Below are positions 7,426 through 56,440 of a stretch of 64,000 bases of DNA, one piece after another (positions within the stretch are counted from its first letter, which is position 1; each line of letters begins with the position of its first letter). A program made the translations under genes and the position numbers. The stretch comes from Octopus vulgaris. Lineage: Eukaryota. The notes below the pieces were generated by a model. That model was not told the DNA's origin, searched no databases, and saw nothing but the letters and a program-made list of their open reading frames with translations. The stretch lies in NCBI GenBank assembly GCA_951406725.2, contig OX597820.1:45198001-45262000 (forward strand). Direction: 5' to 3'.

Positions 7426-9081
7426 TATATATATAAATGATTGTATGTATATATGTGGATCACACTTTTCGATTCAAATTGTTGCTGTCAACTTCTCCCG
7501 AAAAATGAATTCCAGCTAAGCAATATTTAATTTAATTCAGCCCGTATCTACCAGAAATATTTCTATGCAATTGATTGATCTTTGGTTTCCCCTGTTTATC
7601 TCTATTTATGTTATGACTTTTACTTTGTTTATTTCAGCCTCGCCTCATGTTATATATATGTATAATTCATTAGTTCTTCTCAATATATCGTTGTCTCTCT
7701 CATGTCTTGTGTTAAATATATAGTCCTATAGCTCGCCCCCTAATTTTATCGATCAGCCTCACGTCTCGTTAAATATAGAATAAATATTTTTATAATTTTA
7801 TAGCTCCTTATTTTATACCTACTGATAAGTTTTCCTTTCCAGTGGCGCCCACACATGGCTGCTAGTTTTCCTCTTCACATTGTCTTTCTATCTCTTTCGA
7901 TCACCACTCAACTTCCCCTTCACCACCACCCTATATACATTTCACGCTAGCCCCGGAAATAATGGTCACACTTTTCGATTCAAATTGTTGCTGTCAACTT
8001 CGTCCGAAAAATGAATTCCAGCTAAGCAATATTTAATTTAATTCAGCCCGTATCTACCAGAAATATTTCTATGCAATTGATTGATCTTTAGTTTCCCCTG
8101 TTTATCTCTATTTATGTTATGACTCTTACTTTGTTTATTTCAGCCTCGCTTCGTGTTATATATATTTTCCTATAACGGCTAATGTTATTTCTACCACTTT
8201 TCCTGCGGCTGATCACGTCGGTTTATTCTACCTTAAGATTTCTCTTAAGTTATATTATTTATTTAGGCTTTCCTCTGAGTAAGGGAAAATATAATGATTT
8301 ATCGTCACTTATACTAAAGTGTTATCATTGTATCTTTAACCCTAACTGCAGTTGTAACGTCATATAGACATATACGCATGGAACGCTAACTCAACGACTA
8401 TGTATGTTGAATATTTTAATCGTGTCCTTTAAACCGCTATAAGAAACATAAAACAAAGATTACAGAAATGCATATTTATCTATGCTCAGTTGAAAAACAA
8501 ACGTGAAGAGAAACATTTTCTTTTTAATTATTTATTTATATAAATGTAACATTTTATATTTATTTACAAGAAGAAAGATAACTTAGTCGTGAAGAAAAAC
8601 GACTTTAAATTCCTTAGCTAATTTCTTTTTCTATCTAATACGTTAACCAACAAATCAAAATAGATTTGTGATTAACGTAGACATGGCATAAAAATTTACC
8701 GATGTTTCCAAAAGAGTGAGTGTCGTGGAGTTGAATGACTACCGAACGAACACTAAAGTTTCTTCCCAAATCCAGGGTTTTTATAACTGCTCAACCTGAC
8801 CAAAAAGAATCGAAATTCAGGACAAACATTCTTTTCGAAACTTCTAGAATCTTTATACGAGCAGTTACACTAACCAATGGGAAAAGAACGAAAATGACAA
8901 TTCCTCGGCAAAAACATTACGTCATATTGCCAATTCGCGCCACATTTCAAAATGGGTTACTGTCATGCCTTTGGATGTCAGAAGTGAAAGAAGAAAAATC
9001 TGACGTCATTTTGACGTCACACTTTTTCTCGTCCATCTTCGTTTCTTTCCGTATAATTTACGCAAAATCAAAAACGCGTGT

Positions 9082-9660
9082 AAATATATCAAATTAAAAA
9101 ACGCAAATTATTTAGAATGTAAAAATCAAATATATCAAATTAAAAAACGCAAATTATTTAGAATGTAAAAATCAAATATATCAAATTAAAAAACGCAAAT
9201 TATTTAGAATGTAAAAATCAAATATATCAAATTAAAAAACGCAAATTATTTAGAATGTAAAAATCAAATATATCAAATTAAAAAACGCAAATTATTTAGA
9301 ATGTAAAAATCAAATATATCAAATTAAAAAACGCAAATTATTTAGAATGTAAAAATCAAATATATCAAATTAAAAAACGCAAATTATTTAGAATGTAAAA
9401 ATCAAATATATCAAATTCAAAAAACGCAAATTATTTAGAATGTAAAAATCAAATATATCAAATTAAAAAACGCAAATTATTTAGAATGTAAAAATCAAAT
9501 ATATCAAATTAAAAAACGCAAATTATTTAGAATGTAAAAATCAAATATATCAAATTAAAAAACGCAAATTATTTAGAATGTAAAAATCAAATATATCAAA
9601 TTAAAAAACGCAAATTATTTAGAATGTAAAAATCAAATATATCAAATTAATAAACGCAAA
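9082..9660 (+). repeat. 46-bp tandem array, ~12.5 near-identical copies, inside the Merlin left arm
   Basis: Unit aaatatatcaaattaaaaaacgcaaattatttagaatgtaaaaatc. Confidence 0.97.
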
Positions 9661-9860
9661 TTTATTCTTGCATTATTCATTATTGTTTTAAAAAAAGAAA
9701 TCACACCAAAATCTGCACAAATGAACCCCCATGACCATCACCGCGATTACATACACCAATCAGAATGACCACTGACCACCACGTGCGTAATTCAAACTTT
9801 GAAATTTATTCAGTTAGAAACTTTCAGTGTGATATCAACACGTGCTAAACAATTTTTAAT

Positions 9861-10766
9861 ATGGCTTTTGCATATCCAAGTTTAAGAGGAATTAGTCACC
9901 GCGATATTGCCGTCTCCACTGCTACAGCAGCAGATAGCATTAATTGGCTTAAGAGACATGGCCTTTTGAATACCCAGAAAATATGTACATCGTGTGGAGC
10001 TAGCATGAGTGAAGTAGGGAAAAAAAGTATATCTGATGAAGTAATATGGTCGTGTGGAAGGCCTTGTAGAAAATCCGTGTCAATTAGAAAAGGAACATTT
10101 TTAGAAAATAGCAAATTGAAGTGTCAACAAATCATAAATATTTTGTTTTACTGGGCCAAAGAAGATTTAGCAAAAGGAATAGGACAGGAATGTCATTTAG
10201 CAAATGTAGCCATGACAGATTGGAGGAATTTTTGCCGCGATGTATGTGCAGAATATTATGTTGCACAGAATATTAAGCTGGGAGGACCCAACAGAATCGT
10301 AGAGATAGATGAAACCGCGTTTGTTAGGAGAAAATATCATGTTGGCCATCGGGTTAAAACGCAGTGGGTGTTTGGTGCTTTAGAAAGAGATACCAGAAGA
10401 TGTATTTTAGTGGCAGTGGAAGATCGGACAGCGGACACTCTTTTACAGATTATACGAGAGCGTATATTGCCTGGTACAACAATAATTTCCGACCTTTGGC
10501 GTTTGTATAATACACTCAGTCAGCTAGGATACAGACATTTGACCGTGAATCATTCAATAAATTTTGTTGATCCGGTAACATTTGCCACAACCAACCACAT
10601 AGAATGTTTATGGAAACACGTAAAGACTCGAAATAGAAGAGAATGTGGAACAGCCAGAAATTTACTTCAGACCCATCTCATCGAATTCATGTGGCGCTAT
10701 GAATTTAAGGACGATATATTCGGGAAGTTGATAGAGCAAATTCGACAGCTATATCCATGTGTTTGA
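9861..10766 (+). CDS. Merlin/ISXO2-like DDE transposase, 301 aa, uninterrupted
   Basis: Zn-ribbon CTSC...WSCGRPC and SIRKGTF; catalytic motifs VEIDET, IISDLWRLY, HLTVNHS, TNHIECLW, then EFMWR. Confidence 0.95.
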   Translation: MAFAYPSLRGISHRDIAVSTATAADSINWLKRHGLLNTQKICTSCGASMSEVGKKSISDEVIWSCGRPCRKSVSIRKGTFLENSKLKCQQIINILFYWAKEDLAKGIGQECHLANVAMTDWRNFCRDVCAEYYVAQNIKLGGPNRIVEIDETAFVRRKYHVGHRVKTQWVFGALERDTRRCILVAVEDRTADTLLQIIRERILPGTTIISDLWRLYNTLSQLGYRHLTVNHSINFVDPVTFATTNHIECLWKHVKTRNRRECGTARNLLQTHLIEFMWRYEFKDDIFGKLIEQIRQLYPCV

Positions 10767-10861
10767 GTATAAGTATCAAGACAGAATGAGTATCGCATTT
10801 ATTTTTAAACTTAACTTCAAGTTTATATTTTGATAATCTCACCGTTGAAAATGATATTTGA

Positions 10862-10997
10862 AAATAATTTGCGTTTATTAATTTGATATATTTGATTTTT
10901 ACATTCTAAATAATTTGCGTTTATTAATTTGATATATTTGATTTTTACATTCTAAATAATTTGCGTTTATTAATTTGATATATTTGATTTTTACATT
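10862..10997 (-). repeat. ~3 inverted copies of the same 46-bp unit in the Merlin right arm
   Basis: taatttgcgtttattaatttgatatatttgatttttacattctaaa repeats. Confidence 0.95.
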
Positions 10998-11391
10998 CAC
11001 ACGCGTTACTTACCTACCGTGGTGGTACGTAAATAAACGGCGTAAATTAAAGCGTAAATAAACGAAAGACGACGTAAATACACGAAGTTGACATCTGACG
11101 TCAGATTTCTCTACTTTCACTTCTGACATCCAAAGGCATGACAGTGCCCAAAATGGCTAAAATGGCTATTGCTACAATATGTATAATTCATTAGTTCTTC
11201 TCAATATATCGTTGTCTCTCTCATGTCTTGTGTTAAATATATATATAATCCTATAGCTCGCCCCCTAATTTTATCGATCAGCCTCACGTCTCGTTAAATA
11301 TAGAATAAATATATTTATAATTTTATAGCTCCTTATTTTATACCTACTGATTTTTCCTTTCCAGTGGCGCCCACACATGGCTGCTAGTTTT

Positions 11392-12907
11392 CGCGGGTGT
11401 ACCCACCCCTCCACCGCTACAGGAAGTCCTAAATTTTCTCATCCTTGTTGTCTCCCATGTACACTTCAAAATCTTACGCCACCACCACCTCCTTCCATAA
11501 AAGGTAGTGGTCATTCATTGCAAGATATGTTAGTGTAGCGTACGCGGTTTGAACTTGAGTTTTATTGTTTGTCTATGAATCCTGCCAAACGCGAGTTTTC
11601 TTTTCAGGTTCATGATGCTACTAGGGCCAATACCTCCCACTCCCTCAGGGTTGGCACCCTGAAAAGCAGATCTGGCGAGATCGTTGAATTGCTTGAACGG
11701 AGGTGTGTCGATATATGCTGTATTCAAGAAGTGAGGTGGAGAGGAGGTTCTGCTAGGTTCCTCACAGGCAAAGGCCAGAGGTACAAGATTTTCTGGGCTG
11801 GGAATACTGATGGGGTCGGAGGTGTGGGTATACTTATCGCCAAAAATTGGGTAGATAAGGTAATCGAGGTAGTCAGAGTATGTGACAGAATACTGAAGAT
11901 TAGATTAGTGCTGAAGATAGTTGTGTGCAAAAATGCCACACCCTAGCAGTTGAGGGAACCTGTGGAAGAGGTTGACCCAAGAAAACCTGGGACGAGGTGG
12001 TGAAGCACGACCTTCAAACTTTAGGTCTCACCAAGGAGATGACTAGAGACCGAGACCTATGGAAGTATGCTGTGCGTGAGAAGACCTGGCAAGACTAGTG
12101 AGACCATAACCCGAGGCCTCTACCTGGTATGTAGCCAGTCGACTTATACATACCTTTCCTTTTTGGGACACAAAACTCCACTTGTGAAGACCCGTTGAGG
12201 CAAGTGAAAATGAAAATCAAAATCAAACCAAATCAAATCAGATATCAGAAAGCAGAACCAAAATCGAAGTCGATCAACATCAATGGAAATTGCAGCTGTG
12301 ATACCAGTGCTGGTGACAAGTAAGCGAACCATCCGATCGTGGCCGTTGCCAGCACCGCCCCGACTGGCCTCCGTGCCGGTGGCAGGTAAAGATCACCATC
12401 CGTTCGTGGCCGTTGCCAGCCTCGCCTGGCCTCCGTGCCGATGGCACGTAAAAGCACCATCCGTCTGTGGCCGTTGCAACTCGCCTGGCCCCCGTGCCAG
12501 TGGCACGTAGCACCATCCGTTTGGGGCCGTCGCCAGCCTCGCCTGGCCCCGTGCCGGTGGTACGTAAAAGCACCATCCGTTTGGGGCCATTGCCAGCCTC
12601 GCCTGGCCCCCGTGCCAGTGGCACGTAAAAAGCACCATCCGATTGTGGCCGTTGCCAGCCTCGCCTGGCACGTAAAAAGCACCATCCGTCCGTGGCCGTT
12701 TGCCAGCTCCCCCCGGGACCTGTGCGGGTGGAACGTAAAAAGCACCCACTACACTCATGGAGTGGTTGGCGTTAGGAAGGCCATCCAGTCGTAGAAACAC
12801 TGCCAGATCAGACTGGGCCTGATGCAGCCTTCTGGCTTCACAGACCCCAGTTGAACCGTCCAACCCATGCTAGCATGGAAAGCGGATGCTAAATGATGAT
12901 GATGATG
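11392..12907 (+). mobile_element. Internally deleted RTE-clade LINE: 5' UTR and endonuclease fused to the ORF C-terminus, long tandem-repeat 3' UTR, (GAT)n tail
   Basis: LRVGTL...VDICCIQEVRWRG...GVGILI endonuclease motifs. Near 11915 it jumps to the VEGTCGRG-RPRKTW-like C-terminus. Confidence 0.9.
12325..12750 (+). repeat. ~45-60-bp GC-rich tandem units (caccatccg..tggccgttgccagcctcgcctggcc..gtgcc..ggcacgtaaaa) x~8 in the RTE 3' UTR
   Basis: Seen directly; other copies of this UTR in the window carry fewer units. Confidence 0.9.
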
Positions 12908-34760: not shown

Positions 34761-37226
34761 GCAATACAACCCTTATCGTGCGTGTCTATTATCAAAAGCT
34801 TAAAGCTGTTACCGTCCTGTCCTTTTGTGTAAGGGACGACATTCTCCAATGCACCCGTCTATATTTACGACAATGGGAAGTGATTTGAGAAAAATTTGAC
34901 TGATATTCTAACAGGTTGAGCAATCGTGTAGAGCCGCCTATGTACTTGATGTTGATACTTTTACTAGAGCAAAAAAGGTATCGAGTTTGAGGTAGAAGTG
35001 GGTCGTTGAAATTCGGAGGAAAAAATGTCCGACTAAATTACATAAACAAAACAACTATACATACAAAAATATACTGTTGATGTTTTTGAAGTTCCAATGA
35101 AAAAACCTTGGATCTAAGTTAAAAACCAGTTCTTTATTGGCAAGAAATCTTCAAATAAAACTGAATAACGACATATACATATTTATATATAGTGGATCTT
35201 GCAGGCATGAAGTGGATTCGATCCACCATAGCCAAATCTCAAGTAACAGCTCAAAAAACTTTTCTCACGGTGGAACAATAGTTTTTCTGTGACAGCAGTT
35301 TTACATTTGCCAAATTGCCTTAGTTTGGCCGAAATAATGTCTTCACCACTTGACCTTTCTAACCTCTTCTACTTCACCAAAAGCTAGAATTAAGATAACA
35401 AGTACCACCAACGAAATTCATTGTTTTCAACGATATGTCTATTCTTCTGGATAGGTATAAAAACAAGAACTCCCAAGCAAAAATCAGTTAGTCACTTGGT
35501 GACAACTCAGTTAGTCAGTTAGTGACAACTCGAGTTGGTGAGTTAGTGAGAACGGAGTCTGGCTGACCGGCTCAACAAAACGCCGTTTCTAAAGATAAGG
35601 GCACAAAAATGTCAACTATGGTAACTCACCATAGCAGTTGTTTCGTCCCACACTCTCTCACTCTCAATAGCTCACTGTATTTTCTCTTACAGCATGATTC
35701 TAATTCTATCTGTAATTACTACTACACAATAACTAGAACAAACACAACGAAAATCAACGACATATAACTTTACTTCGCAGGCTCTAGGATTTTATCACCT
35801 GCCCGTCGAGGCAAGGTATATTCAATATAACGGTAAATAAATATTTTCTTCATAACTTCAATCACTGTTCTTTCATCTTTACATAATGGCAATCAACAAA
35901 GAACCAATCCTTATCATCGTTAAGAAATTCAAATCCAGAATTTTCAACATCGAAGAAACATATTTCAGTTCGTAACGAGATAAATCGAGAGAGCACTTTT
36001 CCTTTCGAGAGTCACCGCACTTCTGTATGAAGTAGTAAGCACTTAAAATCAGAATCCATAGTTTTACATAGGGATGCAAAATGTCTGCACCGTAGGGAAT
36101 GCGATTTTATGTAATTCATCATTTTAACAACATTGTCCATCGTCTTCAGGAGACCATTAGGTAGAAGTTTTGACAACAAAACTTCGCGGTGAATCATGCA
36201 ATCTACAACTTAATTTGTTTCTAATACATGAGCCATGAAACCCTTTTTTCGACCCTGCATGGATGGAGCGCCATCAGTGCAAACGCTAATATAAGTTTGC
36301 CCCTGCATCCCTCTCAATACGACATTTTGGTTTACCAGATTAAAGACATCTTCTCCTGTCGTTCTTTCCTTCAATTCACAACAAAAGAAAAACTGACTTA
36401 TGATTTTAGCACCTCTAATGATTCGTAGAATTGAAATTAGTTGAGCTTTGTTGTTGATGTCTGTACTTTCACCGATTTGCACACAAGTTTTCGAGTTAAT
36501 TTTTTGCTCCAGTGAAATGTTCGCGGAGCTAATCCCCAATGTCTCGCGAAATGTCTTGAATTTTACGAGAAATCGTGTGGGCAGATAAAGGAATGGTTTT
36601 AATTTGTTTGACAGCTCCATCAATAATCATTGTGCCAATGGCTATCTCCAAGGCTGGTAAAATAATGTTTTCGACATCAGAATGTGTTTTTTTTTTCTTT
36701 GTCAAAAGCTGGGCAATCTTGTAACTAGCGATTTGAGCTTTCTCGGGAATTGAGTGAAATTTCTTCAGCCTTTTTGATTGAATTTTAAAATTATTTTTTA
36801 GCATCTCTAAGTATTCATTTGGTTTGTCCTTATGTTGCGGATGATTTGTTATTAAATGACGTTGAAGTTTACTGGGAACCATCGCTTCATTTGAGAGTGC
36901 TGTTAAACAAATCATACAAAAAGGAACCGAGTTGTCTTTTTCCGATAATATAAAACCATAATTGGATGTAATTTTCTTTATATTTCGTTTTGATGAGGTG
37001 GACTTTTTATTCTGGTATTCGTCTTGTTTGCTATGACTCTCTTTCTCATTTTTCTGAGGTCACAATAAAGATTTGTCCATGTTTAAATCTAAAACTAAAA
37101 ATCAATTAAAATTAACATAAAATAATTTATGTAAATTATAAATAAATCAAAAATTTAAAACTACTAGGATTACTAAACAATTTACTTAGAGACAAACCCG
37201 GTTTAAATGCAGAAATGTAATATATT

Positions 37227-44907: not shown

Positions 44908-46012
44908 CTAGGTTGTCGAGAAAGTTCTTGCGGTTTTTAACCTTTGAATTCAGATGCACCATATCTCGGCTCAAACGAAACTTTATTAATCGAAATAAAC
45001 ACCATTAGAATCAACACACTTTTGCCAATGCGAAACAAGTTTATTTATGCCAGTAGCGTAAAAATCCTGTGTTCTGGTGGCGATGAAGTCGTTGAAAGCA
45101 TGTTTAGCATCGTCTTGGTTTTTGAAGCATTTCTCACGCAGGAAGTTGTCGAGGTGCTTGAAAAAGTGGTAGTCGGTAGGCGAGAGGTCTGGTGAGTATG
45201 GCGGATGAGGCAGAGTTTCGTAGCCCAATTCGTTCAACTTCTGCAGGGTCAGTTGTGCGATGTGCGGCCGAGCGTTGTCGTGGAGAAGAATTGGTCCTTT
45301 TCTATTGACCAATGCTGGCTGTTGTTGTCGGAGTTTCTTATGCATTTCATCCATCTGCTGACAGTACTTCTCCGCCTTAATGGTTTCGCTTGAATCCAAA
45401 AAAGCTGTGATGGATGAGACCGGCCGCAGACCACCAAACAGTCACCATGACCTTCTTTTGGTGCAACTTTGGCTTCGGGAAGTGGCGCGGAGCTTTGTTA
45501 GCATCCAACCACTGAGCTGAGCGTCGCCGGTTGTCGCGAAGAATCCATTTTTCGGCGCAAGTCACAATCCAGTCTAGAAACGGGTCGTTCTTGTTGCGTA
45601 AAAGAAGGGAAGACGATATTTCAAAACGGTGTATTTTTTGGTTGTCGTTCAATTCGTGCGGCATCAATTTCTCAAGTATTTCGTCACCGCTACGAAATTT
45701 CTTGAACCACCATTGTGCTGCACGTTCATTAGTGGTTCCTGGGTCAAACGCATCGTTGATATCCCGAGCTATTTCAGCAGCTTTTCGACCTAGCTTGAGC
45801 TGGAATAAGAAAATTGTGCGAATTTGCTTTTTGTCCATCTTGTATTCAACGTTCCGGAAAAAATGACCTAATTATTCAAAAAGAAAAAGAGTAACACGAT
45901 TAAATAGAATGAAAACAGGCATTAAAATGATATATAAAGTCAAAGTAATTTAACGAAAATTAATTTGAAAATACATCATTTAAATTCCGCAAGAACTTTC
46001 TTAACAACCTAA
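44908..46012 (-). mobile_element. mariner (DD34D, Hsmar1/cecropia-like) element, defective
   Basis: TA-flanked TIRs (c/t)taggttgt..agaaagttcttgcgg. Motifs VTCAEKW (D to A), HDNARPH and YSPDLSPTDY; internal deletion and a frameshift near 45390. Confidence 0.95.
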
Positions 46013-55413: not shown

Positions 55414-55800
55414 TAAACGTGAAAACACACTCATGTACATTCCGAGTTCAAACTCTGCTGAGGCCAACTTTACCGTTCATCCTTCCGAGGTCGATAAAAT
55501 AGAGTGCCACTCAAATACTGAGGTTTATGCAATCGACGGACTGCCGCCCCTTAAAACTGCCAGTCTTGTGTCTAAACCATAAGCCATTGTTAGAAATACA
55601 GTGCGATGAGAAAATTTGACCTTGGTCAGTAAGTCTTGAGCTTTAACGACTCAAACTGCCAGTTACTTTTATGTCAAAAGGACCGATACTGAGGTGATTG
55701 ATGTGGTTAAAAATGATTGTAAACCATATTTCAATACATTTGATATTTGAATTTTTTTTCCAGAAAATAATTCCTGTTCTTTTGCTTTTATTACTTTCAG

Positions 55801-56440
55801 ATTTTTGAAATGCTTCAGTGAAAGTAAAGATATCCTCCTGATTCCGTTTTCATCCAACACTGGCTTTTGTGAGCTTCCTCTTGATGGCCCAGACAGTAAA
55901 AAATATTTAACGATGAAGAATATAATTGAACGTGAAGACTTTCCATTCCGATTAAATTTAGTATGTGGTAATCTACCGCCAATTCTTGATACTTTTGTCG
56001 GAGTAGTTACGGCTAAAAGGGTAATCAAAGAATGCACAGTATTAGCTTCTACCCTGAGTAGTAGCGATCCTTTATTGTTAGAATTAAAACTTGATTCCCC
56101 TGTACGTTTTTCTCTAGCTTTGAATAATCTAGACCTTCAACAGCGCGATGACTACTTAGAAGCCCTTCACGTTTGCAATAGCGAAGGAGAAAGCTATCTG
56201 CAGAATATGAAAGTTGCATTTCAAGTTTACCCAGATGTTTCAAATTTAAGCGAAGACAACAAAGATTGTGAAGAGAACTCCAGCATCACCAGAACTGATT
56301 CTATTGGGTTATTTTCTGAAATATCAGACGAGTTCTCCGTTGAAGACTGGGAACAGGACAAAAAAGACAATTCCCTATCGAGCAATTTAGCTACAGAAAA
56401 AGAGTTAAAATCTGCACCGCACAGTGAAACATTCGTTTGA
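55801..56440 (+). CDS. CABIT-domain protein, terminal coding exon (spliced total 1215 nt, 404 aa)
   Basis: Acceptor ttactttcag is phase-compatible, giving RFLKC...IPFSSNTGF...FPFRLNLVCG, then an acidic tail and TGA. Confidence 0.9.

Follow-up and report, generated by a model that had tools for sequence, protein, structure and literature searches.

Can a transposon that looks complete and young still move, and did its family reach the host by descent or by transfer? The question is raised by a Merlin element of 2,193 bp (positions 8956-11148) in a 64,000-nucleotide stretch of Octopus vulgaris contig OX597820.1, the whole of which we call the window. The original prediction, made from the sequence alone, had described an apparently intact, young Merlin (IS1595-like) transposon, recently active and possibly horizontally acquired. 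We regard it as probable that this is a full-length octopus-related Merlin, likely inherited within Octopus, likely inserted about 2-3 million years (My) ago, and likely crippled by mutations acquired since.

The perfect 8-bp target-site duplication (TSD) and the terminal inverted repeats (TIRs) of about 50 bp that had been claimed were both confirmed. The two copies of CAAAATGG are exact, a match expected by chance at a fixed site with a probability of about 2e-5. The TIRs span 53 bp and are identical at 49 of 53 positions, with mismatches at positions 2, 3, 36, and 40, against a maximum of 31 matches and a mean of 27 in a shuffle control (n = 200). Outside support for the right boundary comes from two contigs of the public sequencing run X1, which diverge from the window directly after 11148 and continue into other flanks. 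The features that mark the element as a Merlin are the 8-bp TSD (8 or 9 bp is expected), the TIR length (within a range of 24-462 bp), and a DDE_Tnp_IS1595 domain with its D-D-E residues. The terminal 5'-GG of Merlin TIRs is present at the right end, which begins GGCAC, whereas the left end begins GTTAC, exactly as first read. A 7-bp TSD, which would keep the left GG, was considered and rejected, as it requires both a substitution and an insertion and gives a TSD of unusual length; an 8-bp TSD with one tandem change is simpler. A feature absent from the original prediction is a pair of subterminal tandem arrays of a 46-bp unit, inverted relative to each other (Table 1). A single base distinguishes the unit of the left array from that of the right, and the final left unit carries the right-side base. 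Both arrays look separately homogenized, in the manner of small satellites carried by the transposon. One left unit has an additional base near 9418.

The 301-residue open reading frame (ORF) matches Pfam family PF12762 (DDE_Tnp_IS1595) with an E-value of 4.8e-18 and scores 83.7 bits against NCBIfam model NF033547 (IS1595 transposase), whose cut-off is 75, and the Merlin identity first proposed is upheld. It is uninterrupted, and the residues of the D-D-E and zinc-ribbon motifs attributed to it are all in place. Among homologs not named octopus, D150 is found in 112 of 112, D211 in 110 of 112, and E248 in 110 of 111, and the four cysteines are found in 83 of 86 (C42), 77 of 77 (C45), 90 of 94 (C65), and 87 of 98 (C69). 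An AlphaFold model built on a 23-row alignment has a mean predicted local distance difference test score (pLDDT) of 89.3 and a predicted template modeling score (pTM) of 0.85; the N-terminal 140 residues modeled alone give a pLDDT of 88. No PDB chain matched the family profile by sequence at E-values up to 1. Residues 142-290 of the model superimpose on the retroviral integrase core (best Z 13.0, root-mean-square deviation (rmsd) 3.5, 129 residues aligned), and further matches, after integrases, are to IstA, Hermes, Mos1, and other DDE enzymes.

N-terminal to this core, fold searches returned nothing at an E-value of 0.001 or a Z of 5. The model of this region resembles Rpb9 zinc ribbons in a weak Foldseek match (E-values 0.3-2, rmsd about 2-3 over about 40 columns), and the three-helix region that follows, predicted as a helix-turn-helix (HTH), is likely to be a DNA-binding segment. 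We therefore read the transposase as having a predicted order of zinc ribbon, HTH, and DDE core, in which the labels of ribbon and HTH reflect weak but consistent matches. The 25 families listed for 23 members do not include Pfam PF12760 (Zn_Tnp_IS1595), nor was it found in the N-terminal 86 amino acids taken alone; Zn_ribbon_recom matches weakly in 6 of the 23 members, with a best E-value of 0.004. The four-cysteine motif is near-universal across this animal Merlin clade (homologs P0007-P0120) although Pfam calls no zinc finger there, an observation that bears on the claimed descent of Merlin from zinc-less IS1016.

The age of the insertion was judged from contigs of public runs. Twenty runs are listed, under four coded organism labels, with 38-50% of sampled words; because the labels are coded, they are uninformative on transfer. 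Four runs were compared over positions 9664-11330 and contributed 344, 211, 256, and 32 contigs, of which the comparison draws on 40 of 101 difference rows, 24 of 117 loose-end rows, and 32 of 855 pieces; depth in these data is not equivalent to copy number. The set used for dating comprises listed element contigs with a depth of at least 100 and less than 3% difference from the window, one flank contig being left out. Contigs that qualified were 4 of 7 in run X13, 4 of 4 in X2, and 4 of 7 in X3, and they diverge from the window copy at 7 of 630 positions (1.1%), 4 of 521 (0.8%), and 3 of 374 (0.8%), respectively. The predicted youth of the element thus holds, with a divergence of about 1% from high-depth contigs of its family that represent near-identical copies at other sites. 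At a substitution rate of 0.0036 per My, derived from O. bimaculoides (PMC13282606), the insertion is likely to be some 2-3 My old, as a rough figure. The remaining element contigs of depth at least 100 are 4-12% different from the window and point to older subfamilies. An empty site was not seen among the 24 of 117 loose-end rows, which come from the compared stretch 9664-11330.

Depth at the right tip is several times the depth found over the ORF, the stretch 11018-11116 is where other sequences join, and some contigs skip internal sequence, from 9705 to 10247 in X2 and X13 and from 10499 to 10948 in X3. Because of these three features, the contigs suggest that shorter, non-autonomous relatives exist. 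Runs X2 and X13, which share the first skip, bear different organism labels; they may have a deletion derivative in common, or the two labels may stand for one species.

We also considered that the ORF might be a domesticated gene of the host, its frame preserved by selection, since it is the only long open frame of a transposable element (TE) in the window. This we hold to be extremely improbable. The TIRs, the TSD, and the many near-identical copies speak for a transposon; the copy-specific differences that could be seen in full change amino acids; and at 1% divergence an open frame would be expected even without selection.

Whether the family arrived by transfer was judged from the relatives of its protein. 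The six best protein matches to the ORF are all from Octopus. Relatives in O. sinensis include XP_036354748.1 (LOC118761145; P0123), with 301 amino acids and 90.4% identity, the partial XP_029657075.1 (P0002) with 91.6%, and P0003 with 74.7%; O. bimaculoides has eight proteins at 78-84% identity. In searches that covered proteins up to 527 amino acids, the best relative not named octopus over at least 250 columns is 49.6% identical, and the best short one reaches 60.5% over 167 columns. Among 68 matches to shorter proteins there was no close non-octopus relative, identities of at least 75% occurring in two O. bimaculoides proteins only. Among 64 metagenome loci there was likewise no close relative, the best segment reaching at most 62%, and a search of the metagenome contigs with the TIR pattern gave 0 matches. 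Seven of these loci (L002, L004, L014, L015, L032, L040, and L049) are compact Merlins of 1.2-1.5 kb with GG ends and 8-bp TSDs, and they make up several families in one eukaryote-like set of contigs (WLWD/WLWI records) of the metagenome collection.

A tree was computed by a quick method without bootstrap from 66 rows, namely matches 1-60 and the named ones, proteins below 200 amino acids being left out. The ten octopus rows lie on one side of a branch with a support of 99 in the Shimodaira-Hasegawa-like approximate likelihood-ratio test (SH-aLRT) and a stem of 0.43, and within them the window copy groups with two O. sinensis rows (SH-aLRT 100). The family was therefore likely inherited within Octopus, as far as sequence comparison can tell; the long stem leaves room for a transfer further back, into an ancestor of octopuses. 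A recent transfer into the host species itself we consider very unlikely. Merlin is patchily distributed, among the molluscs analyzed it occurs mostly in cephalopods according to an automatic annotation (PMC10294476), and the same long stem leads to the octopus clade; these points would suit such an event. Relatives in two named Octopus species, graded in identity (90% and 78-84%), argue against it, as do the lack of anything above about 50% at full length outside Octopus in the searched proteins and metagenome loci and the 191 Merlin protein sequences reported for O. bimaculoides (PMC8101967). The suggestion that this copy was horizontally acquired accordingly finds no support; the family is present in two named Octopus species and the copy groups with those of O. 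sinensis. The transposase phylogeny, which had been proposed as a check, unites the octopus copies in one clade and gives no support to a transfer of this copy.

The signs that this probably inherited copy may now be damaged come from its ORF and its left tip. At position 10504 the window has T (Leu215), whereas C (Ser215) makes up all of the depth in 4 of 4 runs. Leu215 lies four residues after D211 and adjoins the near-invariant Y216; it occurs in none of 111 other and none of 10 octopus homologs, which mostly have Ala or Ser. Positions 9927 (A23) and 10137 (N93) show another letter in all of the depth of 3 of 3 DNA runs, and 10212 (M118) in 94-100% of the depth; M118 is found in none of 110 other and none of 10 octopus homologs. 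The changes at 10212 and 10504 (codons 118 and 215) are transitions of the CpG type. In the tree, the end branch of the window copy has a length of 0.059, whereas those of the O. sinensis rows are 0.008-0.017 long. At the left tip, GT-T in place of GG-C corresponds to GC replaced by TT. Read on the opposite strand this is GC to AA, one of the tandem changes that most commonly arise in a single event according to human data (PMC4158752), and a two-base change in the window copy is the simplest reading of this end. Twelve of the 64 related loci have a detectable TIR and an 8-bp TSD; of these, eight have terminal GG at both ends, two at one end, and two at neither, and the last two may be other elements. 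Since 8 of these 12 loci carry GG at both ends and 10 carry it at one end at least, the suspicion that the left end might impair excision was a reasonable one. The description of the element as intact holds for the reading frame; it does not hold for the residue beside the catalytic center, where L215 is seen in no homolog, nor for the left end, where the GG typical of Merlins is missing.

A number of observations weigh against this account of a young, inherited, and crippled copy. For its age, the rate applied is that of O. bimaculoides, and CpG changes make the copy seem older. For its protein, every invariant catalytic and zinc residue is preserved and the model is well folded, and the protein may still work; moreover I182, found in none of 112 other homologs, is common to most of the contig depth and is on this showing a subfamily trait, and a rare residue need not mean damage. 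The end branch is in part due to such subfamily residues (I182, R199, S220, and T256), which are present in much of the contig depth. Run X1 has three contigs identical to the window, at 9754-9950, 10082-10248, and 10219-10368. Because these include 9927, 10137, and 10212, the window letters at those positions are real or shared and may reflect a small subfamily instead of decay in one copy; over 10504, X1 has no window-like contig. Contigs also drop rare variants, the GTTAC left end and the letter at 10504 could be assembly errors, and active Merlin families with very imperfect TIRs have been described (PMC8101967).

Several of these observations would fit an autonomous element that is fully competent and currently active, its left tip and L215 being harmless or errors of assembly, which we nevertheless judge unlikely. 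In its favor are the open frame, the presence of all key residues, the exact TSD, a divergence of about 1% that falls within the published cut-off of 2% for "recently active" (PMC13282606), and the exact match of three stretches in run X1, which is guessed to be RNA. Against it, L215 is absent from 121 homologs and from the compared contigs, and 8 of 12 relatives carry GG at both ends. None of the listed runs is on record as RNA, X1 being labeled so by guess, and contigs cannot show transcription.

The chemistry of DDE transposases is established, and by analogy with it the binding, cutting, and rejoining steps may be sketched as follows. The 301-residue protein would bind the TIRs, and perhaps the 46-bp units, through its predicted zinc ribbon and HTH; that the arrays serve as extra binding sites is a guess from their inverted placement. 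D150, D211, and E248, in an integrase-like RNase H fold, would cut the element ends, which would be joined to the target with an 8-base stagger, and repair would leave a copy of CAAAATGG at either side. The shorter non-autonomous relatives likely owe their movement to the same transposase family as well. After insertion, neutral drift would likely account for the two-base change at the left tip, the CpG-type transitions at codons 118 and 215, and the changes at codons 23 and 93. Cut-and-paste is the default route in this scheme, and a circle route may also be open to Merlins, because a bacterial member of the IS1016 group, ISApl4, gave a circle by inverse polymerase chain reaction (PMC12561309).

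Table 1. Features of the Merlin element and its surroundings, in window coordinates.
Feature	Position	Strand	Basis
Left target-site duplication, CAAAATGG	8948-8955	.	exact copy of right one
Left TIR, 53 bp, begins GTTAC	8956-9008	+	TIR alignment and shuffle control
Left subterminal tandem array, 46-bp unit x 12.6, 99% matches	9082-9662	+	tandem-repeat analysis
Transposase ORF, 301 amino acids, without intron or stop	9861-10766	+	ORF list; PF12762; NF033547
Four-cysteine motif C42-x2-C45...C65-x3-C69, predicted zinc ribbon	9984-10067	+	conservation; weak fold likeness
Predicted three-helix HTH region, about residues 85-135	10113-10265	+	model; weak homeodomain-like matches, Z up to 4.3
RNase H-like catalytic core	10284-10730	+	PF12762; structure model; conservation
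Catalytic triad codons	D150 (10308), D211 (10491), E248 (10602)	+	conservation
Codon 215, Leu in place of the Ala or Ser of homologs; specific to this copy or an error of assembly	10503-10505	+	contigs; conservation; tree alignment
Right subterminal tandem array, 46-bp unit x 3.0, inverted relative to left	10862-10998	-	tandem-repeat analysis
Right TIR, 53 bp, begins GGCAC	11096-11148	-	TIR alignment; run X1 contigs
Right target-site duplication, CAAAATGG	11149-11156	.	exact copy of left one
Host insert, about 810 bp without Merlin	8166-11176 (8166-8955 and 11157-11176)	.	repeat comparison; contigs

The element lies in a host insert, likewise absent from the original prediction, that is AT-rich and without a long frame, and it landed about 20 bp from one end. 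The insert splits a repeat whose unsplit form is found at 7460-7870, with the junction at about 7655, which is also a contig end in run X3. The two ends of the insert are loosely alike in direct orientation. The 96-97% duplication between 7460-7870 and 7966-8165 plus 11177-11392 was tried as an upper limit on age and rejected, since its very high contig depth in runs X3 and X13 makes it probably a dispersed repeat. With Merlin nested in eukaryotic repeats and microsatellites, and with its closest proteins in Octopus, the context is eukaryotic and not bacterial contamination. No second Merlin copy or remnant was found in the 64-kb window by blastn or tblastn.

Eleven stop-free frames of at least 130 codons were scanned in the window for other coding TEs, and the TE frames found there are, in line with the original prediction, short or split. 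A mariner at 44989-45871 (minus strand), fairly well preserved and with matches to HTH_48 and Transposase_1, is split over two frames. An element at 36213-37059, which we take to be hAT-like from its sequence, also occupies two frames, and its sole Pfam match is a weak zinc finger. Reverse transcriptase and endonuclease pieces run to 133-141 codons. The longest other stop-free frame, of 229 codons, has no Pfam match; it lies at 55751-56437 (plus strand), is acidic, and may be a host-gene exon. At 12248-12869, inside a dispersed repeat, lies a G+C-rich tandem array of 5.2 copies of a 62-bp unit, with open frames on both strands.

Much of what surrounds this locus is already in print: the abundance of Merlin in O. 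bimaculoides and the occurrence of tandem repeats and imperfect TIRs (PMC8101967), and recently active insertions in O. vulgaris (PMC13282606); PMC12637253 names Merlin in a list only. The family itself may already be contained in the Zenodo library of PMC13282606 or the appendices of PMC8101967. The value of the copy is practical. Compact, intron-free, 301 amino acids long, and represented by many young copies, the transposase is well suited to asking whether Merlin moves by cut-and-paste or by a circle, whether terminal GG is needed, and whether the transposase binds the subterminal arrays; it is also a possible native tool for gene delivery in cephalopods. Going by titles and the beginnings of abstracts, we found no report in the literature of a eukaryotic Merlin being assayed for transposition, and a Cell 2024 survey of 130 transposons (PMID 38843831) may include some. 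It is conceivable, if on balance rather doubtful, that this octopus Merlin subfamily is transposing today, that a natural sister copy would provide a working eukaryotic Merlin and the first IS1595-type structure, and that the zinc ribbon-HTH-DDE layout would set this large animal Merlin clade apart from a descent from zinc-less IS1016.

Set beside known systems, the element is young and structurally complete, though probably impaired, and it belongs to a Merlin family resident in octopus and to a known kind. Its nearest counterpart, O. sinensis XP_036354748.1, shares its length of 301 amino acids, its start, its C-terminus, and its clade; this protein and XP_029657075.1 carry S215, V118, D93, T23, and F or L at 182, from all of which the window copy differs. 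For O. vulgaris, 18 Merlin families covering 2.19 Mb have been reported, two of them recently active with 11 insertions and 28,998 bp (PMC13282606); by their description, these two come from what is taken to be the same genus and show less than 2% divergence, at a mean length of about 2.6 kb against 2.2 kb here. The 8-bp TSD, a TIR within 24-462 bp, and a single DDE_Tnp_IS1595 transposase agree with the Merlin superfamily (Feschotte 2004, via PMC8101967), from which the left tip departs in having no terminal GG. Internal tandem repeats and imperfect TIRs are likewise shared with described Merlins, while these are reported to lack, with a few named exceptions, Pfam Zn_Tnp_IS1595 (PMC8101967), and the window copy has a conserved four-cysteine motif. 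With the IS1016 group of the bacterial IS1595 family, as described for ISApl4, it shares the blocks DES...D...Y...H/N-x-I-E-x-x-W and an 8-bp duplication (PMC12561309); IS1016 elements are about 0.7 kb long and without a zinc finger, in contrast to the 2.2 kb and four-cysteine motif of the octopus copy.

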